A stretch of DNA of 64,000 bases, from IMG/VR virus record IMGVR_UViG_3300020046_004224, one strand, 5' to 3'. The stretch comes from a virus (lineage: Duplodnaviria > Caudoviricetes). This document shows positions 7,453-27,603 of this stretch, in pieces. Both the position numbers and the translations under genes were made by a program. The stretch's first letter is position 1. Each line of letters opens with the position of its first letter. The notes under the pieces are model-generated. The model made no database searches. It worked only from the letters and a program-made list of their open reading frames with translations, and was not told the origin of the DNA.

Positions 7453-8694
7453 GTGATGAGAAAATCATGGCCTAAAACATTGGAAGATGTTAAAGTATTG
7501 CTACCCGATTATATAGATATTAAGGATGAAACCTATCAAGGATTTCATAAATCTGCAACATTTATTGATAAGGATTATAATACAGAATTTATAAGAACTG
7601 TTAGATATGTAGTGGTGTATAAATCTGGCTGCAACGAAAGACAAAAGAACCATCGCCAAGATCAAAAATTATATTATTCAACCGAATATATACAGGACAC
7701 ATGTAACAGTGTTCGTTCTAGAAAAGAATTACAAGATAAATTTCCGACAATATTCAATTATATTAAAAATAATGATATACCATTCAACTTGTATTGCTCC
7801 CATTTTATTAAAAGCAATTCATCCAGGGGCGAAGAAATAACCAAATTAATAGCACAAAAATTACTACATCCACATCCATTTATCGAAAATTGTCGAGATG
7901 CTATTCCTTGTTATAGGGCAGAACTGGATATATATTTTCCAACATTGAAAATAGCGTTTGAATATAATGGGTGGTATTTTCATAAAAAGGAACATACCAT
8001 GAATAAAGATACCGTAAAGAAAATCAAGTGTGCCGAAAATGGTATTCTGCTACTGGTTATAAATGAATCCCGAGAGGGTATTGAACATACTAAGGATATA
8101 ATAGTTTATATAAAACAGTGGTTCATTCAAAACATTGATAAAATAAACAATTATTGTAATATATTATATCACCCATTAGACATTAATTCTTTAGATATTT
8201 CTATCGAAGATGTTTATAAACATTTAACCTCTCTGGACGATATTAAATCTTCTATAAAAGAGTGTTCAAGTCTTACCGAATTTAAGGTGAAACACAAAAA
8301 TAGCTGGAACATTTTACGCTATAATGATTTATTATACTTGTTAAATGATCTTCCTATTATCAGAGATTATAATAAATATACGGATGAGGAATTTATCCAA
8401 AAAGCAACTACAGAATTTACGTCGTATGCCGATTTTATCAGATCAAAACTTTTTAAAAAGCTTATCAATAATCAAAACAGAAGAAAAATATTGGATACTA
8501 TAAGAGATATATTCCCTAAATTTACCCATAACAAATACCATTGGTCCGCATTTTCCGATTTTGAATTAATAAATTTTATTGCAAAGAAATTCTCTTCTTA
8601 TAAAGAATTTTCCAAAAACAAGCCTCTTTATAAGAAATGTCATAAGAGAGGTTTAGTTAAAACTATTAAAATTAATTTTAGTAGTTTTCTCTAA
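7453..8694 (+). CDS. putative homing endonuclease (PD-(D/E)XK/Vsr-like with repeated helical modules)
   Basis: ELDIYFP.LKIAFEYNG.YFH...D..K...C...GI.L. Confidence 0.75.
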   Translation: MMRKSWPKTLEDVKVLLPDYIDIKDETYQGFHKSATFIDKDYNTEFIRTVRYVVVYKSGCNERQKNHRQDQKLYYSTEYIQDTCNSVRSRKELQDKFPTIFNYIKNNDIPFNLYCSHFIKSNSSRGEEITKLIAQKLLHPHPFIENCRDAIPCYRAELDIYFPTLKIAFEYNGWYFHKKEHTMNKDTVKKIKCAENGILLLVINESREGIEHTKDIIVYIKQWFIQNIDKINNYCNILYHPLDINSLDISIEDVYKHLTSLDDIKSSIKECSSLTEFKVKHKNSWNILRYNDLLYLLNDLPIIRDYNKYTDEEFIQKATTEFTSYADFIRSKLFKKLINNQNRRKILDTIRDIFPKFTHNKYHWSAFSDFELINFIAKKFSSYKEFSKNKPLYKKCHKRGLVKTIKINFSSFL

Positions 8695-9334
8695 TATGTT
8701 TCTCATATCTTTTACGAACAATTGTTTTTAAATTATATCCTTTATCTTCGATTTGTGGAATTAGATTATTTCGTAACCAGTTTCGACGATATGTTTCATC
8801 AGTATTGGTTTCATCTTCTACAACATATTTCTCCAAATCATGTTCTTTGACAAAAGCCCGAAACTCTTCCTTTTCATTTAGAATAAATGGGCGAATAATA
8901 GTAAGACCGAAATCTTTATATTCGGTAACAAGGGGGACTGGGAGGTATTCCGGTACTCCGTTTAAACAATTATACATGTAATTTTCACATGCATCGTCGA
9001 TGTGATGACCTGTGATAACGTGTCCCATTCCAGCCATTGCTTTATAACGCAATGTTCGTAATTCCGCCTCTGTGGTATGAAAATGTTCAGAAGTATCTAA
9101 TCTCCTTTCCCGCCAAACAAGACCAATATTAAAATCAATACAGAAATCAACAACTGCTTTTTCCATGAGATCGTTCTGTGGACGCAGTTTATGATTGAAA
9201 TGAAAACAATTAACATTGATCTTAGGGCATTTCATTTTAAGAAATGCCGCAATAGCAAGGCTATCAACCCCGCCACTACATGCAACGGTTACTTTGTTGT
9301 TTGCTAATTTCAGAATTTGAGGAATGAATCTCAT
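8678..9334 (-). CDS. tilS: tRNA(Ile)-lysidine synthetase (N-terminal PP-loop domain only)
   Basis: ACSGGVDS, HFNH.LR, E...R..RY, TGHH.DD..E, RP, DETN....YRRN.LR. Confidence 0.92.
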   Translation of the reverse strand: MRFIPQILKLANNKVTVACSGGVDSLAIAAFLKMKCPKINVNCFHFNHKLRPQNDLMEKAVVDFCIDFNIGLVWRERRLDTSEHFHTTEAELRTLRYKAMAGMGHVITGHHIDDACENYMYNCLNGVPEYLPVPLVTEYKDFGLTIIRPFILNEKEEFRAFVKEHDLEKYVVEDETNTDETYRRNWLRNNLIPQIEDKGYNLKTIVRKRYEKHIRENY

Positions 9335-9347
9335 TCCATATCATACA

Positions 9348-10106
9348 CTATTCACCAGCTAAGTCAACCATATCTGTCATATATGTATAAGTTGTTTTTA
9401 ATATCCATTTCTTTGTTGCATCAGATACTTGGCCCATCCAATGTTCTTGTGGTAATTTATTAAGAACCGCTTTAACGGCACGGTTGATAGCTGTTTGTTT
9501 TTGCGTCTCATCTTCTGCATTATGTGCTTGCATCAAATGATATTGGACCATTTGGTTATTTTGTATTTCCCCCGGCAACCAGCCCATGAAATGTGCATTA
9601 ACCTCATCGTCCGAATTTATATATTCGTCTTGCGACGTTGGACGGTTATTTTTAAATCGACCAACATCCTGTACAATATCCTCATATGCATGAGCAATTT
9701 CATGACGAAGCATGTCTTTAATATATTTAGGAAGACTTTTGTTGATGAAATCTTCGAATTTTCTTTCTTTATAGTAGTCCTGGTCTTTCTTAGATGCATT
9801 TACATAGATTTCAATACGTCCATTAGATTCTGCGGTTTCGGGGAAATACATTGCAGAGGCACCGGATTCATTATCAGTCGGATTTTGTTGCATCTCTGCT
9901 CTTGCTGCATGAGAACGTCCTTTATATAATTTAATATCTAAATCATACATATCACCAATGGATACTGTAATAGTATCACCAGAACGTATTGATTTCTTCT
10001 TTGCAAGTTTTTCTTGTAATTGATTAATTACGTCTTCTGATAATGTGGCAAGATCGACGAAATATGCACGTTCTCTAAGTAAAAGATATTGTTTAAGGTC
10101 TAACAT
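9348..10106 (-). CDS. putative zinc metallopeptidase-like virion protein
   Basis: HEIAH (HExxH) plus downstream E; TAAGTA late motif upstream. Confidence 0.55.
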   Translation of the reverse strand: MLDLKQYLLLRERAYFVDLATLSEDVINQLQEKLAKKKSIRSGDTITVSIGDMYDLDIKLYKGRSHAARAEMQQNPTDNESGASAMYFPETAESNGRIEIYVNASKKDQDYYKERKFEDFINKSLPKYIKDMLRHEIAHAYEDIVQDVGRFKNNRPTSQDEYINSDDEVNAHFMGWLPGEIQNNQMVQYHLMQAHNAEDETQKQTAINRAVKAVLNKLPQEHWMGQVSDATKKWILKTTYTYMTDMVDLAGE

Positions 10107-10114
10107 AAAAATAC

Positions 10115-10149
10115 TTATCGGCTATTCAGTAAAAACCAAATAGCCGATA
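10115..10149. repeat. inverted repeat overlapping a late-promoter motif
   Basis: TTATCGGCTATT...AATAGCCGATAA. Confidence 0.65.
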
Positions 10150-10209
10150 AATACGATGGAGAAACTCATCACAGTTTCTCAGATTTAGGGTAGATTGCCC
10201 TAAAAATTA

Positions 10210-10551
10210 TTACATACAATTTTCGAGATGGCTGGCAATCCAGCGGAAAGACATTCCCTTATCATTCAATTTCATGAGATTCTCGGTTACTGCGGAATCT
10301 TCAAAGGTCAAGACCTTTGGAAGGAAGTTGTATTGCTTTCCTGATGGTGCTCCTGCCATCTTTGTGATAGAACCCTTATTCACGCCTGCAATACGGTATG
10401 CAACGCCTAAAACGTCATATGCATCATCCTGTGGATCACGCATTCTGCCGTTGGTTTGTGTATATCTTCCACTACGCAGTGCTCTCACAAGTTTGTTGCG
10501 AAAACGACGTGGGAGTTTTTGATTTTTAATTTCTGTATTTTCTGTTTCCAT
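10210..10551 (-). CDS. hypothetical phage protein
   Basis: ALRSG.Y.Q..G.........LGV...LND.G.SF..IA pattern common in phages. Confidence 0.65.
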   Translation of the reverse strand: METENTEIKNQKLPRRFRNKLVRALRSGRYTQTNGRMRDPQDDAYDVLGVAYRIAGVNKGSITKMAGAPSGKQYNFLPKVLTFEDSAVTENLMKLNDKGMSFRWIASHLENCM

Positions 10552-10589
10552 AAGGCTTTAAACTTAACATATCGGCCAAACCGCTTCAA

Positions 10590-10805
10590 CTAAAATCTAC
10601 GAACAATTCTGCCTTTTGTATAATCTGTCGGAGACATTTCTAGTAATACCTTATCGCCAACTTCTGGCTTGATTCTATTCTTTGTCATCTTCCCTGATAG
10701 ATATGCCAAAACTTCGGCATCGACCTTTTCCAATGTAACTTTAAAAAATCCATTTGGAAGAATTTTTGTTACTAATGCCTTAACTTCGACACATGCTGTT
10801 TTCAT
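10590..10805 (-). CDS. infA: translation initiation factor IF-1
   Basis: LPN..F.V.L......LAYLSGKM..NRI....GDKV..EMSP.D.TKGRI..R. Confidence 0.95.
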   Translation of the reverse strand: MKTACVEVKALVTKILPNGFFKVTLEKVDAEVLAYLSGKMTKNRIKPEVGDKVLLEMSPTDYTKGRIVRRF

Positions 10806-11035
10806 AAATGAAACTTATACAATTTATTTGTCAAATCAACATTTTTATATAATTGCATATCAATTACATTCTCACGTTCCCGTCCATCTCTGTATGAGAT
10901 ACCAAATTCTTCTTGAGAATCAACAGTAATATCCAATTTAATTGGTGTTTTGGTATTTATACTCTTTTGGATGAATGCCATCATTACCAATATTGGTGAC
11001 AAAAGATCATCGCTTCCTTCTAATTCTAATTTCAT
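10802..11035 (-). CDS. hypothetical protein
   Basis: coupled to infA. Confidence 0.55.
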   Translation of the reverse strand: MKLELEGSDDLLSPILVMMAFIQKSINTKTPIKLDITVDSQEEFGISYRDGRERENVIDMQLYKNVDLTNKLYKFHL

Positions 11036-11046: not shown

Positions 11047-11126
11047 TGAGGCGGCTCAGGGGATCGCACCCTGCTTTTTAATAAGAATTTTGCAGATTCT
11101 CCGTTTCACTAGCCACGTCAGCCGCC
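11047..11126 (-). tRNA. tRNA-Cys(GCA)
   Basis: anticodon arm AGAAT-CTGCAAA-ATTCT, U73. Confidence 0.85.
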
Positions 11127-11238
11127 ATTTATTTTACTTATAGTAGAGTACGATACAACACATCAACAAACATGCAAGTCATTTTCACTTTAAAGTTAAA
11201 ATGGTATGATATTGCGGGATGCAACTATAAGTATGTAT

Positions 11239-12177
11239 ATGTGGTTTGATAAATATATTTTCTATGATAAATTAGTATCTCCTATAAACGGATATGAATG
11301 TAAGCGGTTATCGTGCCAAAATATTAAAAATTTTGGGTTTTCTTCGATGGAGGAATTTCATAAAGAATATCCAGGATTTCCTACAAAATGTGAGAAACAA
11401 AAAACAATATATAAAGATTGCTTACAAGCAATGAGTGTTATAGGCAATGAAGTGGCTCGACAAAATAAAATTAAACGAATAGAAGAATATAAAAAATCCC
11501 CTAAGTTATGTATCAAATGTGGTAAAAGCTTGTCATACGAGCAACTTTTAGAAAACGGGGTATATTGTGGAAGAGTATGTGCCAACGAAAATAATAATGG
11601 CAAAACCTTATCCGAAGAAACAAAACAAAAAATAAAACAAAGTTTAAGAGAGCATTATGATGCCGATGGTATTGTGCTCAAGAAAAATACAACAATTCAG
11701 AAACAATGTATTATGTGTAACAAAAATTTCTATTGTAATTACAATTCCAATGCAAAAACATGTAGTTCAATATGTCGGACTGCTATTTGTACAAAAAAGT
11801 CGCGTGAAAATCCTAACTGCGGAGGGCAAAAACGGACACATAGAACATACTTCAATAATATTATAGGAGATTCTGCTTATTTAGAAAGTTCATTTGAAGT
11901 TCGTCTGGCGACCATCTTAAATAATATGAATATATTATGGACACGCCCTTCTTATCTGTGGTATCTAGATAAAACCACAAATAAAAGACGATATTATCCA
12001 GATTTTTACCTACCCATTTATAATGTGTATCTTGATCCTAAAAATGATTTCTTAATCAAGACTGATAGTAAAAAGATTGAAAGTTGTGCCGAATATAATA
12101 ATGTCAAGATATTCATTCTTTCGGATAATATGATAAACGAGTCATATATAACAGAGTTTATTCAGAAAATCTCATAA
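11239..12177 (+). CDS. homing endonuclease (NUMOD3, Zn fingers, PD-(D/E)XK)
   Basis: GKTLSEETKQKIK, ESSFE, RRYYPDFYLP....LDPKN; start re-called after TATAAGTA. Confidence 0.8.
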   Translation: MWFDKYIFYDKLVSPINGYECKRLSCQNIKNFGFSSMEEFHKEYPGFPTKCEKQKTIYKDCLQAMSVIGNEVARQNKIKRIEEYKKSPKLCIKCGKSLSYEQLLENGVYCGRVCANENNNGKTLSEETKQKIKQSLREHYDADGIVLKKNTTIQKQCIMCNKNFYCNYNSNAKTCSSICRTAICTKKSRENPNCGGQKRTHRTYFNNIIGDSAYLESSFEVRLATILNNMNILWTRPSYLWYLDKTTNKRRYYPDFYLPIYNVYLDPKNDFLIKTDSKKIESCAEYNNVKIFILSDNMINESYITEFIQKIS

Positions 12178-12182
12178 AGCAG

Positions 12183-12257
12183 TGGTACCCAATACAGGAC
12201 TCAAACCTGTAACTTTCGCAATGTAAATGCGACACTCTATCATTGAGTTAATCGGGC
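12183..12257 (-). tRNA. tRNA-Val(TAC)
   Basis: TCGCA-TTTACAT-TGCGA, CCA. Confidence 0.9.
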
Positions 12258-12271
12258 ATGTTTCATAAATT

Positions 12272-12348
12272 TGGTACCTATACAGAGATTCGAACTCTGA
12301 ACAAAATGTTTTTGAGACATTCCCCTCTGCCAATTGGGGTATATAGGC
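12272..12348 (-). tRNA. tRNA-Leu(CAA), short variable region
   Basis: AATGT-CTCAAAA-ACATT, CCA. Confidence 0.88.
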
Positions 12349-12359
12349 ATTTAAAAATT

Positions 12360-12440
12360 TGGTGCCCTCGACGAGATTCGAACTCGTAATTATGTCACAG
12401 TTTTTAAGACTGCCGGATATACCAATTCTCCTACGAGGGC
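12360..12440 (-). tRNA. tRNA-Leu(TAA)
   Basis: GCAGT-CTTAAAA-ACTGT, CCA. Confidence 0.9.
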
Positions 12441-12459
12441 TTATATATTACTTTTACTT

Positions 12460-12535
12460 TGGTACCCCTAGTAAGATTTGAACTTACAAACCAGGCTTCT
12501 AAGACCTGTACGGTTGCCAATTACGTCATAGGGGC
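12460..12535 (-). tRNA. tRNA-Leu(TAG), short variable region
   Basis: CAGGT-CTTAGAA-GCCTG, CCA. Confidence 0.9.
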
Positions 12536-12545
12536 ATTTAAAATT

Positions 12546-12621
12546 TGGCGAAGTGTACTGGTAATGCTCCAGCTATTTCTAACTTGACAGGTTAGCGACT
12601 CTACTTTTTGTCCTACACTCC
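12546..12621 (-). tRNA. tRNA-Asp(GTC)
   Basis: CTAAC-CTGTCAA-GTTAG, G73-CCA. Confidence 0.88.
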
Positions 12622-12694: not shown

Positions 12695-13309
12695 TTATTC
12701 TTTTGTAAAGCTTAATTTTGTGTATTTTCTCATATATTCTTGATACAACATATAAGTCCCTGACGAAAAATCAAATACCTGTTTATCAATCAAAAACCAA
12801 GGATCATGACTCATGACAATTGATGTTCCTTTAATTGTTGGTAATACATGATCGAAAAAAATGTGCTTGGCACGAACATCTAAATTTCCATCAATCTCAT
12901 CAAATATAAAAAGAGTCTTTTCTTCGTTTTTCTTTTTTGCCATTGCTACTATCTCCGCCTGACAATTAATCCCTTCTGACGAATGCAATGAGCCAATTCC
13001 TGCCGCTGACTCCATAGTTAGGTCTAAGTCTACCCACATACTTTGCCGAGTTTTAGCAGTGTAATGCCAAACATCAGTTATATCATCAAAACCTTCAAAT
13101 GAAAATCCCTTCATCATATAGTCTGGTGGAGGAGTCATCCAGTTTCCCTTTTTCTTTAACTTTTTATTTAGAAAATTAACTAATGTGGAAAATGTGACGG
13201 TTTTACCAGAACCATTTAAACCTACTACATATGTTATTGCATTTGGAATTATAGGAAGTTCAAAACCTTCTGGAATATTTTTTAAACCCTTTTCAAATTT
13301 TATTTTCAT
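12695..13309 (-). CDS. ABC-type ATPase
   Basis: GLNGSGKT, S.EG, FIFDEID.NLD, SHD. Confidence 0.8.
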   Translation of the reverse strand: MKIKFEKGLKNIPEGFELPIIPNAITYVVGLNGSGKTVTFSTLVNFLNKKLKKKGNWMTPPPDYMMKGFSFEGFDDITDVWHYTAKTRQSMWVDLDLTMESAAGIGSLHSSEGINCQAEIVAMAKKKNEEKTLFIFDEIDGNLDVRAKHIFFDHVLPTIKGTSIVMSHDPWFLIDKQVFDFSSGTYMLYQEYMRKYTKLSFTKE

Positions 13310-14181: not shown

Positions 14182-14261
14182 TGGTATCTCCTGTGGGAAT
14201 TGAACCCTTATACAATTCAAAGTTCGAAGCTTTGCGTGATGTTCCATTTCACTAAAGAGAC
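14182..14261 (-). tRNA. tRNA-Arg(TCG)
   Basis: CAAAG-CTTCGAA-CTTTG, CCA; imperfect T stem. Confidence 0.8.
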
Positions 14262-14285
14262 ATTTAATTTAATCATCTTCCATAT

Positions 14286-14360
14286 TGGTGCCTCATCTAG
14301 GATTCGAACCTAGAATTCAAAATTCGTAGTGTTGTGTGATATCCATTTCACCAAAGAGAC
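14286..14360 (-). tRNA. tRNA-Arg(ACG)
   Basis: loop CTACGAA, CCA. Confidence 0.85.
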
Positions 14361-14367
14361 ATTTAAA

Positions 14368-14454
14368 TGGCAGAAACGGAGGGATTCAAACTCTAGACAC
14401 CTTGCGGTGTACTTGTTTTCCAAACAAGCTACTCAGTCAACTAGTTTACCTTCC
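14368..14454 (-). tRNA. tRNA-Ser(GGA)
   Basis: CTTGT-TTGGAAA-ACAAG, long variable arm, G73-CCA. Confidence 0.8.
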
Positions 14455-14464
14455 TTTTAAAATT

Positions 14465-14552
14465 TGGTGGGACAACCTAGAGTTGAACTAGTTGCCGCCG
14501 CCGCACTTATTAATGGCAATAGATTTACAGTCTACCGTGCGGGGATTATCCC
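14465..14552 (-). tRNA. tRNA-Tyr(GTA) with no canonical D arm
   Basis: GGGATAA/TTGTCCC-ACCA, GTAGA-CTGTAAA-TCTAT, only 10 nt between acceptor and anticodon stems. Confidence 0.75.
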
Positions 14553-14584: not shown

Positions 14585-15142
14585 TCAACCATAATAGTAA
14601 TCTTTCCATCTATCTCCTAAAATATCATATAAATTTTTCAGATCAGATTTTAAAATCTTATTAGTGTGTACTAGTCTATGACAGTTTGGACATAATAAAG
14701 TTAAATTTGTGTGGTTGTGCGGGTCGGGTATTTTTCGACCGTTGATGTGGTGAATGTCGCACGTTGATTCATTCCATGAACAAATCGAACATCCTATGTT
14801 TAATCTTTTTAAGATTTTAGAGACTGTTCTCTTGGAGAATTCTAGTAAAGATGTCGCTGTATCGGCTTTAAATTTATTTTTCGTTCCTCCACCAACCCTT
14901 TTCGATCTTTCGTCTGTTGATAACAGATTGTTATATTTCTTGCGAACAACGTTTTTATAATCCCCTCTTTCGTGCTTTAGGCTAATAGCATCTGCTATCT
15001 TTTTATTGTGTTCCTCCGAATGAACAGGTCTTTTTCTATTACTCGCCTTCGCTGCGCACGATAAATTACAAAATCTTTTATATGATTTATCCCAATTTGT
15101 TTTTGGAATAAATTCTAGACCACATTCTTCACATATTTTCAT
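14585..15142 (-). CDS. HNH homing endonuclease
   Basis: C..C...DIHHI......N...NL.LLCPNCH..VH. Confidence 0.88.
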   Translation of the reverse strand: MKICEECGLEFIPKTNWDKSYKRFCNLSCAAKASNRKRPVHSEEHNKKIADAISLKHERGDYKNVVRKKYNNLLSTDERSKRVGGGTKNKFKADTATSLLEFSKRTVSKILKRLNIGCSICSWNESTCDIHHINGRKIPDPHNHTNLTLLCPNCHRLVHTNKILKSDLKNLYDILGDRWKDYYYG

Positions 15143-15150
15143 TTTACGAA

Positions 15151-15190
15151 TACAGACTCCCGCTACACCACCAATCGTAGCCGTTAACGC
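15151..15190 (-). pseudogene. 5' half of a tRNA-Tyr(GTA), truncated at the anticodon
   Basis: GCGTTAA-CG-GCTAC-GATTGGTGGT-GTAGC-G-GGAGT-CTGTA, then the HNH start codon. Confidence 0.55.
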
Positions 15191-15214
15191 ATATTTACTT
15201 TACTTATCTTAAAA

Positions 15215-15412
15215 CTATCGAATATTCGCAGATACTACTTTACCATCTTTAATAACAAAATTTACTCGGTCGGAACGGGCATCCATAGTTACGAAAAATT
15301 TTTCATCGTCTCGCTCTAGCACCCGTGCTCGAAAGCCTTTTGACTTTGCCAAATCTCTTGCATCTTCTTCGGTTAGATTAAAATATTCTTTCATATTAAC
15401 ATACTCTTTCAT
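15215..15412 (-). CDS. small protein, I78 peptidase-inhibitor-like
   Basis: RV......VTMD.R.DRVN....DGKV. Confidence 0.6.
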   Translation of the reverse strand: MKEYVNMKEYFNLTEEDARDLAKSKGFRARVLERDDEKFFVTMDARSDRVNFVIKDGKVVSANIR

Positions 15413-15438
15413 AATCCACTACTATATCATCAGTATCA

Positions 15439-15723
15439 TCAAGTGTCAAGACGCTTCTGTTTATTATAGTACCAATTTGTTATCATCTTTATAAATGTCT
15501 TGTCTTTAAAATAAAGACAAAAAGTATATATAATGGCTAATAAAATCCCTACTATGAACACTGCTATTACAAATATATTTGTCCAGGGTATAATGCAAAA
15601 TATTATTGGCGGATCAGATATGGCAAATGTATGAAAATTAAAAAATTTAAACACTTTGTTCCAATATTTTCCGATAAAAAGAGCCAGAACAACACTGAGA
15701 ATATAATAAAATAAATAAATCAT
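15439..15723 (-). CDS. membrane protein
   Basis: two hydrophobic segments. Confidence 0.55.
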   Translation of the reverse strand: MIYLFYYILSVVLALFIGKYWNKVFKFFNFHTFAISDPPIIFCIIPWTNIFVIAVFIVGILLAIIYTFCLYFKDKTFIKMITNWYYNKQKRLDT

Positions 15724-19578: not shown

Positions 19579-19639
19579 TACACTTACTTACATAAGTAGT
19601 AATAGATTGTATACATGTATTATTGGTTCGTTACTTTTT

Positions 19640-19714
19640 TGGTAGCCTCTCCCAGATTCAAACTGGGAATGTCGCAGTCAAAGTGCGAAGTGTTGTCAAT
19701 TACACCAAGAGGCT
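19640..19714 (-). tRNA. tRNA-Gln(TTG)
   Basis: TCGCA-CTTTGAC-TGCGA, CCA. Confidence 0.9.
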
Positions 19715-19729
19715 ATCTTTTTACTAAAT

Positions 19730-19803
19730 TGGCAGCGAATGAAGGTATTGCGCCCTCTTTCCAGGGGTTGGAAGCCTGTACATTACTTTTATGTTAACTC
19801 GCT
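19730..19803 (-). tRNA. tRNA-Trp(CCA)
   Basis: loop TTCCAAC, A1-U72, G73. Confidence 0.75.
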
Positions 19804-19989: not shown

Positions 19990-20250
19990 TCATATTTTTA
20001 TAAAATCTTCGTTATCATATTTACCGTGTACGATATTCATTGCGAAAGCAAGACCGACAGGACCGCTCATAGGCTGAACACTGACGATTTCGTGTATCAA
20101 AAATTCAGGACTCATGCGCCGAATCATAGGAATCATGATTTTAGAAAAATCTGGAACTGCGGGTTCTACTACTTTTGGTAGTAACGGTGCAACAACAGTC
20201 GCAACCACGGTTCCGAATAATTTCTTGAAAAATGTACGTCTTGAATTCAT
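19990..20250 (-). CDS. Tat-signal-like mini-protein carrying a gp23 major-capsid (Gol-region) segment
   Basis: SRRTFFK plus hydrophobic stretch; IPMIRR..P.......SVQPMSGPVGLAFAM. Confidence 0.7.
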   Translation of the reverse strand: MNSRRTFFKKLFGTVVATVVAPLLPKVVEPAVPDFSKIMIPMIRRMSPEFLIHEIVSVQPMSGPVGLAFAMNIVHGKYDNEDFIKI

Positions 20251-20255: not shown

Positions 20256-20338
20256 TGGAGCTAACGGTCAGATTCGCACTGACGGTGTGGTATTCATTCT
20301 TACAAGGAATGCGCTTTCGACTTCTCAGCCACGTTAGC
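20256..20338 (-). tRNA. tRNA-Thr(TGT)
   Basis: CATTC-CTTGTAA-GAATG, CCA, enlarged variable loop. Confidence 0.85.
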
Positions 20339-20354
20339 AATTTTATTAACTTTT

Positions 20355-20431
20355 TGGTACTCCTGACAAGATTCGAACTTGCATCAAAATCGCCCTTAAC
20401 GATTCGCCTCTACCAATTGGGCTACAGGAGC
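20355..20431 (-). tRNA. tRNA-Leu(AAG), short variable region
   Basis: AATCG-TTAAGGG-CGATT, Leu-type D loop, A73-CCA. Confidence 0.8.
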
Positions 20432-20436
20432 ATTTA

Positions 20437-20838
20437 CTACTCAAACTTTAACTCTTTTTCTTCTTTTGTCAATGAGATATTCTTCTCAAAAGGATACTCG
20501 TTGTAAAATATAACATTATACCACCATCCGATATATTCCTGTTCAGGACATCCACCATCATCGTCATAAGGCAATGCATCATACAACTCATGAACCTTTT
20601 CTACATTCTTTTCGAGGAATGCATCCAATATATCCAATTGTCTTTGAAGTTGATCACCAGTAAAATTTTTCGCCAACCGCTGTCTTTCCTGTTCGGGAAA
20701 GAACTCATATTCCTTTGTGATTGTTTTTACAATTTTCATTTTTTTCATATATTGGTTTATAAGGTCTATTACAAATAGATCAGACTCCTTCCAACTTTCT
20801 CTCGCATCATTCGCAAAACATATATCGGATATACTCAT
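20437..20838 (-). CDS. hypothetical protein
   Basis: start re-called downstream of tRNA-Gly. Confidence 0.55.
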   Translation of the reverse strand: MSISDICFANDARESWKESDLFVIDLINQYMKKMKIVKTITKEYEFFPEQERQRLAKNFTGDQLQRQLDILDAFLEKNVEKVHELYDALPYDDDGGCPEQEYIGWWYNVIFYNEYPFEKNISLTKEEKELKFE

Positions 20839-20841
20839 ATT

Positions 20842-20916
20842 TGGTGCGGTATGTCGGAATCGAACCGACATATGAAACTTGGAAGGCTCCCATAATAACC
20901 ATTATATTAATACCGC
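20842..20916 (-). tRNA. tRNA-Gly(TCC)
   Basis: loop CTTCCAA, CCA. Confidence 0.9.
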
Positions 20917-21002
20917 ATAAAATTGTGCGCTCTACTTTATCCCCTATCACTGTCGAATATCACAGTATAGATTCGGGGGTTGAAACACAAATTCGATTTC
21001 AT

Positions 21003-21075
21003 TATCAAAGGTGAGATTTGAAACTCACACATCCCCTGCAAGCAAGAGGGCATTCTCCATTAAATTACTTCGATA
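21003..21075 (-). pseudogene. degenerate tRNA-like element
   Basis: ATCGAAG/CTTTGAT acceptor, D and T arms, non-canonical anticodon loop, no CCA. Confidence 0.5.
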
Positions 21076-21381: not shown

Positions 21382-21597
21382 TCAAGAGACTTTGTAAACC
21401 AATGATTCGCCATCTTTAACAACTTCTATCAAGTCTTTCATATCAAATCGTATAGACATCTCAGGAATACCAAACGGACTAACATCCACAGACCCGTCTG
21501 ATTTTCTCCAATGCTCGACGTATGTACTGAACCATCTTCCCCTCGGAACGCACCAAAGAGTACCTTTAAATTCATCGCCCTTCATAACATTATTCAT
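21382..21597 (-). CDS. hypothetical protein
   Basis: ORF. Confidence 0.5.
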   Translation of the reverse strand: MNNVMKGDEFKGTLWCVPRGRWFSTYVEHWRKSDGSVDVSPFGIPEMSIRFDMKDLIEVVKDGESLVYKVS

Positions 21598-22198
21598 GTG
21601 TGCCTCCGTCTAAGAACATTTTCCATTCATCACGCATAAAATTGAAGATCATTCCATTTTTTGGCTTAACAGGCTTTCTCACAAGCTTTAAACCACATTC
21701 TTTCGGAGTTCTGTCACCTTTCCAAATATTGAGCGCCTTATCACACGTCGCCAAATTTTCCCAACTGTTCTGACCGCCTCTTGAGCTAGGCAAAATATGA
21801 TCGATACTGACAGATTCTCTATCAAGTTTCTTACCAGTGTATTGACAGGTGTAGTCATCTCTTTGCCATATATTAGACTTGGTAGGAAATACAACTTTCT
21901 TAAAAATGATTTTGTTGAAACTTGCACATACAATGATTGCAGGAAGACGAAATTCTTCTTTTGAAGTTTTCACAGATTCGTCATATGATCGAACTGGTAA
22001 TTTTCTCCAATCTTCGAAATCACGAACAACTTCCATATATTCGATTTTATTCTTGTTTATATTTCCGTCTTCGTCGATTTCATAAGAAATATCAATAGGG
22101 AATGCCGCACCCGATATTATATCAATCATGGCGGTTTTCCAGTTACTAACTCCACATGGAAAAAATCCCTTTGTTAATTTTAATATTTCTTGTTTCAT
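21590..22198 (-). CDS. HNH endonuclease (McrA-like)
   Basis: RD.YTCQYTG......SIDHILP.SRGG.NSWENL.TC....N..KG.RTP. Confidence 0.88.
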   Translation of the reverse strand: MKQEILKLTKGFFPCGVSNWKTAMIDIISGAAFPIDISYEIDEDGNINKNKIEYMEVVRDFEDWRKLPVRSYDESVKTSKEEFRLPAIIVCASFNKIIFKKVVFPTKSNIWQRDDYTCQYTGKKLDRESVSIDHILPSSRGGQNSWENLATCDKALNIWKGDRTPKECGLKLVRKPVKPKNGMIFNFMRDEWKMFLDGGTHE

Positions 22199-22509
22199 TG
22201 ATTACTCTACATTAAATCCTTTCATCTGTCAACAGCATTCGCCGATTATTCCGCGCACGGCTTGATATATACTAAAGAATAAATTCTTCCTACCGACTCC
22301 TAGTTTATGTATATCCCAATAATGTGTTGAAATTTATTCGTCCAAAGGTTTTAATTCTAAACTAGAATAAACCTCTTCTCTAACTTTTGAATCCATCATC
22401 ACTGCGAATGCAATATTTAATAATTGTATTCTAATACATGTGAGTTCGTAACTAGAAAATCCATGGCAGTCTCTGAGGTCTTCTAAAATTTTATCGATTG
22501 TTGGTGTTT

Positions 22510-22722
22510 TCATTTCCAAACTTTCTTATAGATTCTCATTTTTGTTTCTATGCTTGGCGAATCGCCTTCATAGTAGCAACCACCATAATCAGTTTCAGAA
22601 CTAATATCTATTCGAACATCAGCATTTTCAAAAACAGTATAACGGTATGAATCGATAATAGTCTCTGAAACTAGTTCTAGATGTTCGGTGAAGGGTTTTT
22701 TTGTAGTTTTCTTTTTTGCCAT
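22510..22722 (-). CDS. hypothetical protein
   Basis: ORF. Confidence 0.5.
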   Translation of the reverse strand: MAKKKTTKKPFTEHLELVSETIIDSYRYTVFENADVRIDISSETDYGGCYYEGDSPSIETKMRIYKKVWK

Positions 22723-22723
22723 A

Positions 22724-23176
22724 TTATTGTAACTTACTTCCTACCAATGTTGAAATTGTTCTGTTATCAGTTGCACCATTTACAAGCTCTGAAACACGTT
22801 TGATAACCTTACCCATATCCTTCTTAGATGTGGCTCCAAGCTGTGCAATAACACCGTCAACGAGGATTTCGAGTTGCATATCAGTCAGTGCAGGAGGAAG
22901 ATATTCGCGGAGTAATTGCATCTCCAAAAGTTCCGTTGCTGCTAATTCGATTCTGTTTTCCTTTGTAAAAATATTAAAGGAATCTTCTCGTTGTGCAACT
23001 TGTTTACGAATAATACTAAGTGCCTCAGTATCCTCTAAGGGCGTATTAACATTTCCTTTGATAATTGCGGCATTTGTGAATGCATTTTTAAGTTGCCGCA
23101 ACATTGCAAGCTTGGTTTTATCAGACTTGCGCATTGCATCCTTGATATCTTCGTTAATTTGTTCTTGTAGTTTCAT
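22724..23176 (-). CDS. yqeY: GatB/YqeY domain protein
   Basis: D.K.AM...D...L..LR, K....R.DS...F....R.ELA, YLP..L, KDMGKV. Confidence 0.9.
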   Translation of the reverse strand: MKLQEQINEDIKDAMRKSDKTKLAMLRQLKNAFTNAAIIKGNVNTPLEDTEALSIIRKQVAQREDSFNIFTKENRIELAATELLEMQLLREYLPPALTDMQLEILVDGVIAQLGATSKKDMGKVIKRVSELVNGATDNRTISTLVGSKLQ

Positions 23177-23462: not shown

Positions 23463-23619
23463 TGGTCGAAAAGGATAGGGGATGTCCTATCGTTTCGATG
23501 ACTTTCATCATCACATCATACACTCCTTGCCATCCGGTAAGGGTTAGCGCCAGTAACGGGTAGGATTTCTATCATAGCTAATAGAAATATACTGCTTGCC
23601 ACACTCAGCTACTTCTCGA
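23463..23619 (-). ncRNA. tRNA-scaffold RNA with branched anticodon domain
   Basis: CGAGAAG/CTTTTCG-ACCA, D arm, GATGAT-GAAA-GTCATC variable arm, GATAGG/CCTATC arm. Confidence 0.7.
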
Positions 23620-23629: not shown

Positions 23630-23705
23630 TGGTGGGCTAGACACGACTTGAACGTGCAACTTAGAAATTAAAAGTTTCTTATTCTACCAATTGAATTACT
23701 AACCC
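23630..23705 (-). tRNA. tRNA-Lys(TTT)
   Basis: AGAAA-CTTTTAA-TTTCT, CCA. Confidence 0.9.
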
Positions 23706-23784: not shown

Positions 23785-24822
23785 ATGAAAAAATGTTTAA
23801 TATGCGATTTATCTCTTAGTGGCAAACAACGATTATTCTGTTCCAGATTATGTAAAGACAAACACTATGCAACCATGGATGATTCTTTAGACGCACCTCT
23901 TATAGAAGAAATAAAAATGTTGTATAATAGTGGTTTAAGTTTTCGACATATAGCAATACTAAAAGGTATTCCCAAACTCGTTCTTTGGAAATTAGGGCGA
24001 ACGGGGGTGGTCCCTTCCCGAACACGGGGTCAACAAGCAACTTTAACCAATACAGGACGCACACAAAGTCCAGAATCTAGGGAGAAAATATCCAAGGCAA
24101 GAAAAAAATTCTTATCCGAGAATCCAAATATGGTGCCGTATAAACTAAATCATAAGCACACCAAAATATCTTACCCAGAACAATACTTCATAGAATGTTT
24201 TCAAAACAAATTCGTCTATCAGCACAGAGTTTCAACATATACCTTAGATTTTGCTGATATCGAAAATAAACTGGATATAGAAATTGATGGATGTCAACAT
24301 CGTTTAGACCCTAAAATTGTTAATCATGATTGGAAAAGAAACATATACTTAACTGAACATGGATGGAATGTTTTACGAATAAACTGGTCAATCTTTAAAA
24401 GTCTTCCACCAGAAAACCAACGAAATATAGTGAAAGATATACTACAGGATATTGTTCCTAGTTCTTCGTCGATATCGTTCTATCCAGCAAACATTGCTAT
24501 ATCTAATGAAGAATTTATGATAAATATTCAGAGATTAAAGAATCGTAATATATGTCCTATATGTGGTTCGCATAAATGTGCAGAATCTATAAACTGCTCC
24601 AAATGTGCAGGCAGCACCCGAGTTAAAATACCCTGGCCCTCTGTTGAAGAAATGTCAAAGATGATCTGGGAAATTCCTGCAACTCGGATTGCACAAAATA
24701 TGGGAATATCAGACAATGCTGTTATCAAATTCTGTCGAAAACATAATATCTCAAAACCAGAGCGTGGATATTGGCAAAAACTATATGGTGGAGACACGGA
24801 GAGTCGCGCTCCGAATTCCTAA
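23785..24822 (+). CDS. homing endonuclease (NUMOD3 + DUF559/Vsr-like)
   Basis: TGRTQSPESREKIS, YTLDFA.....LDIEIDG.QH...R..YL...GW.V.RI.W. Confidence 0.82.
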   Translation: MKKCLICDLSLSGKQRLFCSRLCKDKHYATMDDSLDAPLIEEIKMLYNSGLSFRHIAILKGIPKLVLWKLGRTGVVPSRTRGQQATLTNTGRTQSPESREKISKARKKFLSENPNMVPYKLNHKHTKISYPEQYFIECFQNKFVYQHRVSTYTLDFADIENKLDIEIDGCQHRLDPKIVNHDWKRNIYLTEHGWNVLRINWSIFKSLPPENQRNIVKDILQDIVPSSSSISFYPANIAISNEEFMINIQRLKNRNICPICGSHKCAESINCSKCAGSTRVKIPWPSVEEMSKMIWEIPATRIAQNMGISDNAVIKFCRKHNISKPERGYWQKLYGGDTESRAPNS

Positions 24823-24860
24823 TTGCAAGTTAGGTGTGTTACTGTTAGCACTATGCCCCC
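24786..24860 (-). tRNA. tRNA-Ala(TGC)
   Basis: CCTAA-CTTGCAA-TTAGG, G3:U70, ACCA. Confidence 0.9.
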
Positions 24861-24871
24861 TTATATCTTTA

Positions 24872-24946
24872 CGGTCTAGATAGTGAGTACCGCCCTCACA
24901 TCCACTGAATCCCAAATTCAGGGCATTACTTGTCTGCCATATCTAG
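24872..24946 (-). tRNA. tRNA-Pro(TGG)
   Basis: CTGAA-TTTGGGA-TTCAG, C1-G72, A73. Confidence 0.8.
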
Positions 24947-25009
24947 ATTAAATCTTTCGGAAAATTATAAACTTAATATTCCCTGCCCTTGTCAATTCAA
25001 GTCGTTATG

Positions 25010-25084
25010 TGCCGATTGCGGAAGTCGAATCCGCATTTTCCAGTTTGAAAAACTAGTGCTCTAGTCCAGTTAAGCTAAATCGGC
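25010..25084 (-). tRNA. tRNA-Glu(TTC)
   Basis: CTAGT-TTTTCAA-ACTGG. Confidence 0.78.
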
Positions 25085-25095
25085 TTTTGTGAAAT

Positions 25096-25191
25096 TGGTG
25101 GGCGGGAATTCTCGCTATTATGAAATACGTTTCACGATACTTTCAGCCATACGAGCTTAGGAAATCATGAGGTACTTGTCAAGCGCCGCCC
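25096..25191 (-). ncRNA. ACCA-tailed structured RNA without a cloverleaf
   Basis: GGGCGG/CCGCCC-ACCA, CGCT/AGCG, GTGAAA-CGTA-TTTCAT. Confidence 0.6.
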
Positions 25192-25220
25192 ATTTAAAAC
25201 TATCTTTTTAATTGATTATA

Positions 25221-25455
25221 TTTTACAAAAGGTGTGCTTCTACGCCAAAGAAGAATCAAGCCTTACCAGTTACGGGGTACTCTTTTACTTTCCACGGTTA
25301 GACGGTATCCAACTTGAGTATCAATATCTAACTTTGATATACTCAAGTCACCACAATCATTAGTTACTTAAAACTAACTCGTTGGCATCGGAGGCCCGCG
25401 TTTCGCTTCACTCATTAAAGATGGCTGCTTCTAAGCCAACTACCTTTTTATAAAA
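25221..25455 (-). ncRNA. 23S rRNA GTPase-associated-centre (H43/H44) mimic RNA
   Basis: GTTGGCTTAGAAGCAGCCATC...TTTAATGAGTG[insert]GCGTAGAAGCACAC closed by a terminal stem. Confidence 0.8.
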
Positions 25456-25461
25456 AAAACT

Positions 25462-25577
25462 TTCTGATTATAGGACTCGAACCTATACCTACTTAATGTC
25501 GTATCTAATACTCTAGTCGGAATTGCACCGATTTCCGCCCCTCGACGGGGTTGTGCTGCCATTAACACCAAATCAAA
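25462..25577 (-). ncRNA. tRNA-like RNA with two T-arm-like hairpins
   Basis: TTTGATT/AATCAGA, D arm GTGT/GCAC, TCGG-TGCAATT-CCGA and ATAGG-TTCGAGT-CCTAT. Confidence 0.55.
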
Positions 25578-25580
25578 AAT

Positions 25581-25655
25581 TGGCGTCCCCTGTTGGAATT
25601 GAACCAACGTTTATAGTTCGAGAAACTATTATCCTAACCGCTAGACGAAGGGGAC
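25581..25655 (-). tRNA. tRNA-Glu(CTC)
   Basis: ATAGT-TTCTCGA-ACTAT, GTCCCCT/AGGGGAC-GCCA. Confidence 0.9.
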
Positions 25656-26019: not shown

Positions 26020-26097
26020 TGGCTCCTACCCGTGGTTACGATCCACGCTTATCGAGATTAACAGTCTCGCGCTTAACACCAAGCCAGCCCGATAGGA
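26020..26097 (-). tRNA. tRNA-Asn(GTT)
   Basis: CGAGA-CTGTTAA-TCTCG, G73-CCA. Confidence 0.88.
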
Positions 26098-26100
26098 ATT

Positions 26101-26337
26101 TTATATTCTCGTTTCTTTATCCAATTCGACGAACTCTTTCCATAAACTCAAAATTTCTTCTTTTTTCGACGAATTGTTCATTTTGAACACCGTCTTTTCT
26201 TTCTCCCATAACTTAACATTCATTTCGAAATCGTCAAACGCTTTGTCTAATCTTTTTCCTTGGTCAATAACTTTTTGAACTCTTTCTATAAATTCTTTAT
26301 CGATTAAATCAATATCATATTGAAAAGAATTATCCAT
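26101..26337 (-). CDS. hypothetical protein
   Basis: ORF. Confidence 0.5.
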   Translation of the reverse strand: MDNSFQYDIDLIDKEFIERVQKVIDQGKRLDKAFDDFEMNVKLWEKEKTVFKMNNSSKKEEILSLWKEFVELDKETRI

Positions 26338-26523
26338 ATATTAATCTGCCGCTCTGTTTATTTCAAATGCTTCTAACCCACACACCTTTGCAACAGTACC
26401 ATCTTCACAGTAAAGTGCAACTTCTAATCTCTGCGTCTGCTCAACTTTGACAACTTTTTTACCTTTATAGTGTGGATAAAATGATAAAACGTATTGTGCA
26501 GTTTCTATCTTATTCATAAATTT

Positions 26524-26599
26524 TGGTTGCTTGAGTCGGTTACGATCCGACCTATATAGTTCTTCAAACTATCGCTTTCACCAGATTAGCTTTCAAGCA
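26524..26599 (-). tRNA. tRNA-Phe(GAA)
   Basis: ATAGT-TTGAAGA-ACTAT, CCA. Confidence 0.88.
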
Positions 26600-26625
26600 A
26601 TTAATATATTTCTTTAATCATTTTT

Positions 26626-26817
26626 GCCGTTTCCGGCCCTACACCACCCGTTCTTAGGTTGTGTCACTCTATTATTATTTGCCGTATTTGAGTTAATAAT
26701 TGAAACCTCTCGTCGGATGCTCCGAACGGGTTTCCCTCTATCGGAGTTATGAAAACTGTATATTTCGTTCCCCAATGGGTGTAAACGAAACCACAGTCCC
26801 GGTCTTTGCCGGACTGC
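26626..26817 (-). ncRNA. unknown ~190-nt structured RNA
   Basis: series of GC-rich hairpins in an AT-rich genome, ending GCCG-GAAA-CGGC. Confidence 0.6.
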
Positions 26818-26918
26818 CTTTAAAACTTTGATGTTTTGAATATGTTCTCATATTATTATCTTTACTTACTCTACTTTACACTATTTTGTTTTGTTATGCA
26901 AATCTAATTTCTTTCATA

Positions 26919-27401
26919 TTATTTCAATAATTCAGGATTTTCAAATATATTACCGATAACACACATTCTTGCTCTGCCACAAATAGGAGAAGATGGAGGT
27001 AGTTCATATCGATATATAGTACCTGTCGAATCGTCTCCTACTATATAACGCATCCAACTAAAATCTCCAATACCTCCGTCTGGGGCAGTGCCCAATTTAA
27101 TCGGTTTCAACTTAAATGCACCGTCATCAAAGATAACTTTGAATAAACAAGATGTATCAACTTCGATCACATCATAATACTTTAAATAAACTATATCGCC
27201 CTCATATATTTCTTGTTTGTTAACATCTTTTTTTCCTGTAAATGATTGAACAACGAACCAATCGTCTGTTCTTTTGAGAAATTCTGAAACAGGTGCATTC
27301 CCTTTTAAAAGATATGATGGTTCAAAGTCTAATCCATTGGAAGTAGATAAAAAACGATTTTGTCCACGACTTTCCCAAATTCGGAATTTAACATCTTTCA
27401 T
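26919..27401 (-). CDS. YopX-family protein
   Basis: KFRIW...Q.FTG.KD.N..EIYEGDIV...VIGNIFENPELL. Confidence 0.85.
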   Translation of the reverse strand: MKDVKFRIWESRGQNRFLSTSNGLDFEPSYLLKGNAPVSEFLKRTDDWFVVQSFTGKKDVNKQEIYEGDIVYLKYYDVIEVDTSCLFKVIFDDGAFKLKPIKLGTAPDGGIGDFSWMRYIVGDDSTGTIYRYELPPSSPICGRARMCVIGNIFENPELLK

Positions 27402-27429
27402 ATTGTTTTATCTTTAATTGATTAGTTGT

Positions 27430-27506
27430 TGGTACTTCATCAGACACTCGAAATCTGTTTTATTCGCATATGAAACGAACTCGATAGCCACTACCGACCA
27501 TGAAGC
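27430..27506 (-). tRNA. tRNA(CAT), probably Ile2 (or elongator Met)
   Basis: TTCGT-TTCATAT-GCGAA; acceptor resembles the Ile(GAT) gene; TilS nearby. Confidence 0.75.
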
Positions 27507-27518
27507 ATTTTTAAAAAT

Positions 27519-27603
27519 TGATGCGGAGGTGGGAGTCGAACCACACTAGGTCAAAGGACAACGGGATATGAACCCGTCCAGCTACCGTTGCTGACACTCT
27601 GCG
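27519..27603 (-). tRNA. initiator tRNA-fMet(CAT) with extended variable arm
   Basis: C1xA72, GGG/CCC anticodon stem, variable GTC-CTTT-GAC. Confidence 0.8.

Follow-up and report, generated by a model that had tools for sequence, protein, structure and literature searches.

A tRNA-rich island in a large uncultured phage: a probable translation core with exchangeable add-on cassettes

Introduction

Large phages are known to carry translation genes, the use of which is mostly guesswork. Huge phages encode many transfer RNAs (tRNAs), tRNA-modification enzymes, IF1 and other factors, a repertoire that has been read as intercepting or redirecting host translation (Al-Shayeb et al. 2020, PMC7162821). 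Here we describe an island of ~19 kb (positions 8678–27603) in a 64,000-nucleotide (nt) stretch of virus DNA, IMG/VR record IMGVR_UViG_3300020046_004224 (Duplodnaviria; Caudoviricetes), the whole of which we call the window. Besides ~30 tRNA genes, the island holds three translation proteins and a number of unusual non-coding RNAs, and it resembles the huge-phage repertoires in its many tRNAs, its tRNA-modification enzyme and its IF-1. The published survey, however, lists protein, tRNA and transfer-messenger RNA (tmRNA) genes per genome; the word 'lysidine' is not in its text, and it describes no RNA mimic of the ribosomal GTPase-associated centre (GAC), no mini-protein built on the Gol region of a capsid protein (mini-gp23), no tRNAs lacking the D arm and no cassette joining IF-1, an HExxH protein and a TilS reduced to its catalytic domain (mini-TilS) (PMC7162821). 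Nor did we find a description of the GAC-mimic, mini-gp23 or D-armless tRNA-Tyr families, or of this cassette, in the literature searched. We propose that the island is probably a translation-themed accessory region, in which a conserved core is combined with swappable add-ons.

The classical small-scale analogue is the tRNA region of T4, with its stable RNAs C and D and the segB homing endonuclease. There, too, the tRNA operon yields non-tRNA stable RNAs that are cut out by tRNA-processing enzymes, and it is interleaved with a free-standing homing endonuclease. The island is far larger, with ~30 tRNAs and at least six endonucleases, and adds translation proteins and an rRNA-domain mimic.

A translation core common to four lineages

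The window (34% G+C) encodes a gp44-type clamp loader (661–1566), DNA and RNA ligases, a lysozyme-bearing protein of 933 amino acids (aa) and a PhoH/terminase-like protein, and therefore derives from a large, distantly T4-like uncultured phage; the clamp loader, by its predicted type, puts this phage near the T4 group. Among the 50,697 deposited phage genomes in INPHARED we found no near DNA match of the island. Contigs from two other Joint Genome Institute metagenomes (samples 3300020036 and 3300005664; L191 and L192) were rejected as comparative relatives because, at 99.99–100% identity, they represent the same phage and carry no comparative signal. Relatives were instead found through the protein database (a TilS peptide-pattern search of IMG/VR returned none) and are given here with their mini-TilS identity: relative B (L096, 64%; ENA ERZ27280251 k141_1970173), relative C (L203/L206, 76%; Ga0451752_0000206), relative D (L207, 60%; Ga0558063_0000400) and a fragment (L204, 94%). 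Joint Genome Institute samples with relatives are 3300043429 and 3300056673.

All four lineages (the window, B, C and D) have in common a tRNA array, the HNH nuclease encoded at 21590–22198 in the window, and a cassette of IF-1, a 250–276-aa protein and mini-TilS that adjoins a tail-tube gene. A 113-aa DUF8296-like protein belongs to the cassette in the window, B and C and is missing from D, and YqeY is present in the window, B and C. The other parts are patchy within the syntenic ~20 kb covered per relative, to which every 'absent' refers: mini-gp23 occurs in the window and B (not in L206), an alanine-type tRNA-like RNA and a 118-nt tRNA-framed RNA in the window and C, the D-armless tRNA-Tyr in the window and D, and the GAC mimic and three orphan RNAs in the window only. 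About 10 of the 37 open reading frames (ORFs) tested have orthologues in B.

TilS, IF-1 and YqeY, which a first-pass annotation of the island had named, are all confirmed by profile matches. Mini-TilS scores 115.8 bits against TIGR02432 (lysidine_TilS_N; cut-off 93.6) and has the PP-loop motif CSGGVDS at residues 19–25; the tRNA-binding domains at the C terminus of full-length TilS are missing (NF007942, 74 bits; cut-off 606). Its family comprises at least 135 clusters of proteins of roughly 200–250 aa, with orthologues in L096, L203, L204 and L207. IF-1 matches TIGR00008 with 66.5 bits (cut-off 61.15) over profile positions 1–68 of 69, a full-length S1-like oligonucleotide/oligosaccharide-binding fold, and the group formed by IF-1 and its flanking ORFs has orthologues in the same four contigs at 58–96% identity. 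Between IF-1 and mini-TilS, in every relative, sits the gene of the HExxH protein (252 aa in the window), whose motif (H135-E136-x-x-H139) is unchanged across five orthologues. Three of these five gave weak Peptidase_M91 matches (best E 0.0053), and this protein may be a zinc protease; its AlphaFold model has a mean predicted local distance difference test score of 72, and Foldseek and VIA-align returned no informative match.

The island runs on the minus strand throughout, except for two of its at least six free-standing endonuclease genes (11206–12177 and 23785–24822, plus strand; the others are at 14585–15142, 15994–16695, 18640–19578 and 21590–22198). Just upstream of the gene at 15994–16695 (minus strand) lies a 38-nt 5′ half of a tRNA-Ser(GCU) (16706–16743, minus strand), 95% identical to the gene of relative B, and downstream of it lies a diverged but full tRNA-Ser(GCU) (15907–15999), an arrangement that looks like the footprint of a homing-endonuclease cassette insertion. 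Because the parts are separately distributed, only ~10 of 37 ORFs are shared and half a tRNA-Ser is stranded, we read the island as a core with moving cassettes and not as one interdependent device.

The first-pass annotation had instead proposed one coordinated translation-takeover and decoy system, whose RNAs and proteins would act jointly on the ribosome, EF-Tu and ribosome rescue, and had named synteny and co-occurrence in related phages as a check. Every annotated function does concern translation, and the core cassette is indeed co-inherited in four lineages; the remaining parts, however, are inherited separately and in different combinations, the GAC mimic being confined to the window among these relatives. 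The tight packing of all parts on one strand, which such a system would also produce, is explained by endonuclease-driven mosaicism. Three of the RNAs (the GAC mimic, the alanine-type RNA and the 118-nt RNA) are genuine and conserved, but the tag frame of the one called tmRNA-like is not, and the tie to EF-Tu consists of homology to the T4 Gol region. What stands is the translation theme, with its co-inherited core; a single interdependent system appears very unlikely.

Promoter-like sites are not enriched overall (99 versus 82 ± 10). Eight exact TTGACA sites with 17-nt spacing nevertheless stand on the minus strand ahead of gene groups, and terminator-like sites are few, which suggests that the island is divided into several short operons and is not transcribed as a single long precursor. 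Two of the eight sites, both TTGACA-17-TATTGT, end 8–11 nt before the alanine-type RNA (11 nt upstream) and the tRNA-Tyr.

A phage RNA family resembling the GTPase-associated centre

In bacterial 23S rRNA the GAC (helices H42–H44) forms the domain bound by uL11 and thiostrepton (PMC1802607). The 235-nt RNA that the first-pass annotation had taken for a GAC mimic is one, and it belongs to a large phage RNA family. It carries a 21-nt block with the exact sequence of the H43 loop region as well as an H44-like GCGUAGAAGC hairpin, and a closing helix takes the place of H42; it differs from the rRNA domain in being free-standing, phage-encoded amid tRNA genes and split by an insert (56–349 nt in the family, ~160 nt here). 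Compared with E. coli DNA by blastn, the mimic matches 23S rRNA only, with the 21-mer GTTGGCTTAGAAGCAGCCATC in common. This 21-mer occurs in 94 IMG/VR stretches; in 92 of them the 23S match spans only 21–38 nt, and these are not rRNA genes.

Besides the insert, members of the family have a UUAAAGAGU-type junction and an H44-like GCGUANNAGCAC hairpin, and AGUA motifs are present in the conserved insert of the mimic alignment. The closing helix has a different sequence in 52 of the 58 unique members yet averages 7.6 bp as against 3.2 bp in mismatched controls, and the pair flanking the 21-nt block is always Watson–Crick, in four types. The window mimic has a 10-bp closing helix together with both the H43-like block and the H44-like hairpin, and its full-length homologues are found on three contigs (L016, L019 and L025), one of which is a complete 224.7-kb T4-like phage. 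The family is not in Rfam 15, and we found no description of it in searchable papers, exact sequence words included.

Across 78 unique loci, 441 of 441 tRNAs lie on the strand of the mimic, and in 17 of the 78 a tRNA ends 10–17 nt before the conserved block. Common orientation and abutting spacing therefore support co-transcription and release by tRNA-processing enzymes for this family, as had been suggested for the RNAs of the island. In 35 large phage records with a mimic (18 of them at least 90% complete), IF-1 was found in 3 and TilS above the cut-off in none. A further candidate, an 11-mer 'GAC core' match in L193, was rejected as a chance match within a coding region.

A capsid segment as a free-standing gene

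The Gol-like peptide noted in the first pass is confirmed as an 86-aa protein, mini-gp23, that matches the T4-type major capsid protein family PF07068. Its residues 31–77 align to residues 87–133 of T4 gp23, in which the Gol peptide occupies about residues 93–122. In T4 no part of gp23 is more conserved than the 29-residue Gol region, which binds EF-Tu and enables its cleavage by the HExxH protease Lit (PMC3014915). Mini-gp23 is homologous to the Gol-containing segment and an HExxH protein is encoded 10 kb away; here, however, this segment forms a gene of its own, which also encodes a twin-arginine-like leader, and the HExxH protein has no detectable likeness to Lit (Peptidase U49; none at E up to 10 in five orthologues). 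A link between the two is tempting since Lit is an HExxH enzyme as well. Action on EF-Tu, as proposed in the first-pass annotation, is suggested by T4 Gol biology only and finds no support beyond this homology.

The mini-gp23 family comprises proteins of 76–99 aa with an RRxF[LF]K leader followed by a hydrophobic stretch; in 20 members RR and F are invariant and K nearly so. The window leader reads SRRTFFK, and the Pfam and NCBIfam models of twin-arginine translocation signals do not match it. The ratio of non-synonymous to synonymous substitution rates is 0.16–0.49, so mini-gp23 is a real gene under purifying selection, not a decaying fragment. It stands within a tRNA array in three lineages; in distant phages its neighbours include Gad2, Tad3, T7 Gp5.9-like, PNKP and small RF-1-domain genes, often with an HNH nuclease adjoining. 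In three distant phages the RF-1-domain proteins (68–70 aa, consisting of the RF-1/peptidyl-tRNA-hydrolase domain only) are encoded 0.6–1.3 kb upstream of mini-gp23. A second kind of capsid-fragment mini-gene occurs in the complete 224.7-kb T4-like phage with the closest mimic relative (L190), where a 98-aa ORF (G001:C1:69563–69727) matches another piece of Gp23, profile positions 142–196.

tRNA-like and tRNA-framed RNAs

Five candidates bear on the claim of at least four tRNA-framed non-decoding RNAs: two (at 18104 and 25461) are conserved with compensatory changes, and three are without homologue. The first, a 112-nt RNA that had been called tmRNA-like, shares with tmRNA a G3:U70 pair, A73, CCA, a UUCAAAU T loop and the lack of an anticodon arm, but has no pseudoknots, no frame conserved at the peptide level and no match from ARAGORN (default or relaxed) or the Rfam tmRNA models (E up to 5). 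Its homologue in relative C (L203 225–331; 71.5% identical, nhmmer E 4e-9) retains these identity marks, and its three internal hairpins contain three compensatory pairs between them. This homologue was found by blastn and nhmmer, and a covariance model of the RNA found no copy in 1.05 Mb of phage loci. Folding of the window copy is no better than that of shuffles (z-score −0.17). The tag frame is open in both copies, yet the peptides differ, ending ...VSMTQLEKVRAA in the window and ...DSDDAIGKGVRNPE in L203; we therefore read the RNA not as a tagging tmRNA but as a conserved tRNA-like RNA that probably accepts alanine. The RNA and its tRNA-like domain are thus upheld, whereas the ribosome-rescue role, which was based on the tag, is not. 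The second conserved RNA, of 118 nt, has a homologue in relative C as well (L206 2365–2483; nhmmer E 3e-11), with four compensatory pairs.

For the three orphans (17511–17667, 23463–23619 and 25095–25192) neither 1.7 Mb of phage loci nor the ~20-kb pieces of the relatives yielded a homologue. The RNA at 17511–17667 scores 26.7 bits with the Rfam tRNA model, below the cut-off of 29, is called 'His + 83-nt insert' by relaxed ARAGORN and folds with a z-score of −1.35. The flanks of the RNA at 23463–23619 are conserved in L206, from which the RNA itself is absent. These orphans could be non-functional remains of tRNA genes that the movement of homing endonucleases has broken and patched, an explanation that we consider quite possible, if short of probable. 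It would account for the lack of homologues in ~1.7 Mb of related phage DNA and three relatives, and damage of this kind is visible elsewhere in the island, in the tRNA-Ser remnant adjoining an endonuclease gene and in a 7-nt duplication between the T stem and the acceptor stem of the window alanine-type RNA that the L203 copy does not have. Debris would not be expected, however, to retain full-length acceptor stems and CCA-type ends, and two of the orphans fold better than shuffles (z −2.67 and −3.36). The ends of the odd RNAs, moreover, show no likeness to any canonical tRNA of the window or L096, which speaks against descent of the orphans from an extant tRNA.

The tRNA array and a D-armless tRNA-Tyr

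The ~29 tRNAs of the first-pass count correspond to ~30 tRNA-shaped genes that cover all 20 amino acids, although one third escape standard tools: 20 exceed curated thresholds (17 by ARAGORN at default settings and 3 more at or above the Rfam gathering score), and the others are backed by orthology or covariation. Relaxed ARAGORN settings added six (two CAU tRNAs, Ser(GCU), Cys and two with 'inserts') and reading by hand five (Tyr(GUA), Pro(UGG), Asp(GUC), Trp(CCA) and Ser(GGA)). Ser(GGA) and Pro align to ARAGORN-called tRNAs of relative C (in L203 and L206, respectively), the Asp region (12546–12621) is homologous to L206, and the Asp and odd-elbow forms have homologues in other phages. The two CAU tRNA-like genes (27430–27602), detected at relaxed settings only, may be Ile2, the cognate of TilS, or Met. 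The window contains 20 copies of the T-loop word GTTCRANTC as against 4.5 expected, 15 of them on the minus strand of the island, the odd RNAs included. Remodelled elbows, remarked on earlier, are visible: 8 of 28 tabulated tRNAs lack GG in the D loop, and all 8 also have a non-canonical T loop. The Val and Gln tRNAs resemble a swap of G19:C56 for A19:U56, and odd-elbow tRNAs of a similar kind occur in L016, L021 and L082.

The tRNA-Tyr at 14465–14552 has no D stem-loop, with just 10 nt between its acceptor and anticodon stems. In all seven distinct sequences of its family, drawn from phage contigs, these 10 nt pair with the variable region, and three of the pairs covary. Across the family 96% of cells are paired, 15 of 26 pairs are compensatory, and the helix between the D region and the variable loop, a pseudoknot, is 100% paired; the anticodon loop is canonical and invariant. 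The gene is syntenic in relative D (L207), just before tRNA-Ser(GGA), and the family also occurs in unrelated phages. All known bacterial tRNAs have been stated to be cloverleaves (PMC11551756), a view of bacterial-type tRNAs against which this family runs.

Rewired and remodelled tRNAs would also suit an island devoted mainly to counter-defence. The tRNAs, among them the Tyr and those with altered elbows, would replace or outlast host tRNAs hit by anticodon nucleases, mini-gp23 would be an early decoy against capsid-sensing defences such as Lit, and the GAC mimic would serve to draw off, as a decoy, some factor or toxin that binds this ribosomal site. Phage tRNAs are known to counter tRNA-cleaving defences (PMC10264068, PMC11464382), and eight tRNAs here have co-varying D-loop and T-loop changes; the Tyr anticodon loop, on the other hand, is canonical and invariant, unlike the escape mutations described for phage tRNAs. 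Likewise, it is through the Gol region of gp23 that Lit is activated on EF-Tu (PMC3014915), and mini-gp23 stands amid Gad2, Tad3, T7 Gp5.9-like and PNKP genes in distant phages, but no known anti-defence family is found among the window's own ORFs, and no route is known by which IF-1, TilS or YqeY would serve counter-defence. On balance we consider this explanation unlikely and retain the core with add-ons as our reading.

Other features of the island and the window

Upstream of tRNA-Phe lies a non-coding element of ~190 nt (26700–26885, minus strand) with 89% identity to B (L096) and 74% to C (L206). It is better conserved than most shared stretches of the island (68–97%, most 70–82%) and has two invariant hairpins, with one compensatory change. 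The best, very weak matches of the 204-aa ABC protein are to the ABC-F ribosome-protection and EttA families, and no orthologue was found in the relatives' ~20-kb pieces. About 25 small ORFs of the island have no family match. At its border lies an ORF of 1722 aa (27899–33067, plus strand) without a Pfam match or a tblastn match in the INPHARED genomes; further away the window encodes a transposase-family protein (41674–42939, minus strand; phrog_506, 421 aa) and a 354-aa RNA ligase with an HNH-nuclease-like N-terminal region (54482–55546, plus strand; phrog_24030, E 1e-135). Coordinates are collected in Table 1.

Table 1. Features of the island in order of position, with related small genes of distant phages in the last row
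Positions	Strand	Feature	Basis or remark
8678–9334	−	Mini-TilS, 218 aa, catalytic PP-loop domain only	TIGR02432, SGGVDS motif
9348–10106	−	p252, conserved 252-aa HExxH protein	Putative zinc metallopeptidase
10210–11035	−	IF-1 (10590–10805) flanked by 113-aa DUF8296-like ORF and 77-aa ORF	Orthologues
11048–12621	−	tRNA-Cys; Val, Leu(CAA), Leu(UAA), Leu(UAG); Asp(GUC) 12546–12621, non-canonical elbow	ARAGORN, hand
11206–12177	+	Endonuclease gene amid the Cys–Asp tRNA group	Plus-strand gene
12183–12257, 12546–12621, 19640–19714, 24786–24945	−	Examples of odd-elbow tRNAs	D-/T-loop reading
12695–13309	−	ABC-type ATPase, single domain, 204 aa	Weak ABC-F/EttA likeness, 29 bits, far under cut-off
14182–14552	−	tRNA-Arg(UCG), Arg(ACG), Ser(GGA) 14371–14455, D-armless Tyr(GUA) 14465–14552	ARAGORN, orthology
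14585–16743	−	HNH nuclease 14585–15142, tRNA-Ile, Ser(GCU) 15907–15999, endonuclease 15994–16695, Ser(GCU) 5′ remnant 16706–16743	
17511–17667	−	Orphan tRNA-framed RNA, 157 nt	8-bp acceptor, canonical T arm, ~100 nt of extra hairpins
18104–18215	−	Alanine-type tRNA-like RNA ('tmRNA-like'), 112 nt	G3:U70, A73, CCA, UUCAAAU T loop, no anticodon arm
18390–19803	−	tRNA-His, HNH nuclease 18640–19578, tRNA-Gln, Trp(CCA) 19733–19803 with non-canonical elbow	
19990–20250	−	Mini-gp23, 86 aa, twin-arginine-like leader, then Gol region of T4-type major capsid protein	PF07068, 1.6e-11
20256–21075	−	tRNA-Thr, Leu(AAG), Gly, tRNA-like gene 21002–21075, 144-aa ORF	ARAGORN, Rfam
21590–23176	−	HNH_4 homing endonuclease (HNH202) 21590–22198, then small ORFs and YqeY	HNH orthologues in L096, L206, L207
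22724–23176	−	YqeY	PF09424, E 8e-38; orthologues in L096, L206
23463–23619	−	Orphan tRNA-framed RNA, 157 nt	Folding z-score −2.67; directly after tRNA-Lys(UUU)
23630–23705	−	tRNA-Lys(UUU)	Directly upstream of the 157-nt RNA 23463–23619
23785–24822	+	DUF559/Vsr-type endonuclease	Opposite strand to tRNAs
24786–25084	−	tRNA-Ala(UGC), Pro(UGG) 24868–24945 with non-canonical elbow, Glu(UUC)	ARAGORN, Rfam, hand
25095–25192	−	Orphan RNA, 98 nt	7-bp acceptor-like stem, ACCA end; folding z-score −3.36
25221–25455	−	Mimic of 23S rRNA GAC (H43/H44), 235 nt, ~160-nt insert	blastn, family statistics
25461–25578	−	tRNA-framed RNA, 118 nt	Canonical T loop; directly after tRNA-Glu(CUC)
25581–25655	−	tRNA-Glu(CUC)	Directly upstream of the 118-nt RNA 25461–25578
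26020–27602	−	tRNA-Asn, Phe, non-coding element 26700–26885, YopX 26919–27401, CAU tRNA-likes 27430–27506 and 27522–27602	
L098 9165–9371; L182 8471–8683; L185 1616–1828		Small RF-1-domain proteins near mini-gp23	

Discussion

In the arrangement that we favour, the core consists of an almost complete tRNA set of the phage's own together with an HNH homing nuclease, YqeY and the cassette, which abuts the tail-tube module and contains IF-1, the DUF8296-like protein, the HExxH protein and mini-TilS. This core would keep translation running and bias it toward phage messages: the phage tRNAs would serve AT-rich codons and make up for those cleaved by host nucleases, lysidine placed by TilS on a phage CAU tRNA would allow AUA to be read, and IF-1 would act at initiation. 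The add-ons, namely the GAC-mimic RNA, the alanine-type tRNA-like RNA, the 118-nt tRNA-framed RNA, the D-armless tRNA-Tyr and mini-gp23, would be single-gene cassettes inserted between tRNA genes with the aid of at least six homing endonucleases, each add-on probably acting on a target of its own. The RNAs are probably parts of tRNA precursors, from which RNase P and 3′ tRNA-processing enzymes would cut them out. What the analysis demonstrates is the existence of the parts and of their families, together with their distribution, whereas all biochemical activities are inferences.

Several points weigh against this reading. The three tRNA-framed orphans stay unexplained, the RNAs of the island are known from genomic sequence only, and the relatives are compared over ~20 kb each. 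The RF-1-domain protein and PNKP near mini-gp23 in distant phages hint, in addition, at more functional linkage than pure accretion would give.

Core and add-ons might even form a layered defence of translation, a speculation to which we give little credence. In such a scheme, early synthesis of mini-gp23 would let it engage EF-Tu or a capsid sensor ahead of the genuine capsid protein. The substrate of the HExxH protein would be a host factor of translation or defence, and a factor docking at uL11 and the GAC would be titrated away by the mimic. The alanine-type RNA would be charged and then serve off the decoding pathway. Jointly, these parts would prevent abortive-infection systems from shutting down protein synthesis. 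If true, this would be the first described phage locus to join an rRNA-domain decoy, a capsid-epitope decoy and rewired tRNAs.

The comparative result warns that tight clustering is no proof of one integrated system. What the locus does show is a tRNA region serving as a cassette site for unusual RNAs and small proteins that are predicted to be aimed at the translation apparatus. Its value lies in a comparative map of which parts travel together and in the individual parts for which we found no description: a free-standing copy of the RNA domain at which factors bind the ribosome, a conserved mini-protein that corresponds to the capsid segment binding EF-Tu in T4, the D-armless tRNA-Tyr family, and a catalytic-domain-only TilS that always adjoins IF-1 and an HExxH protein. 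Through each of these, the ways in which phages protect or redirect protein synthesis become open to concrete tests.

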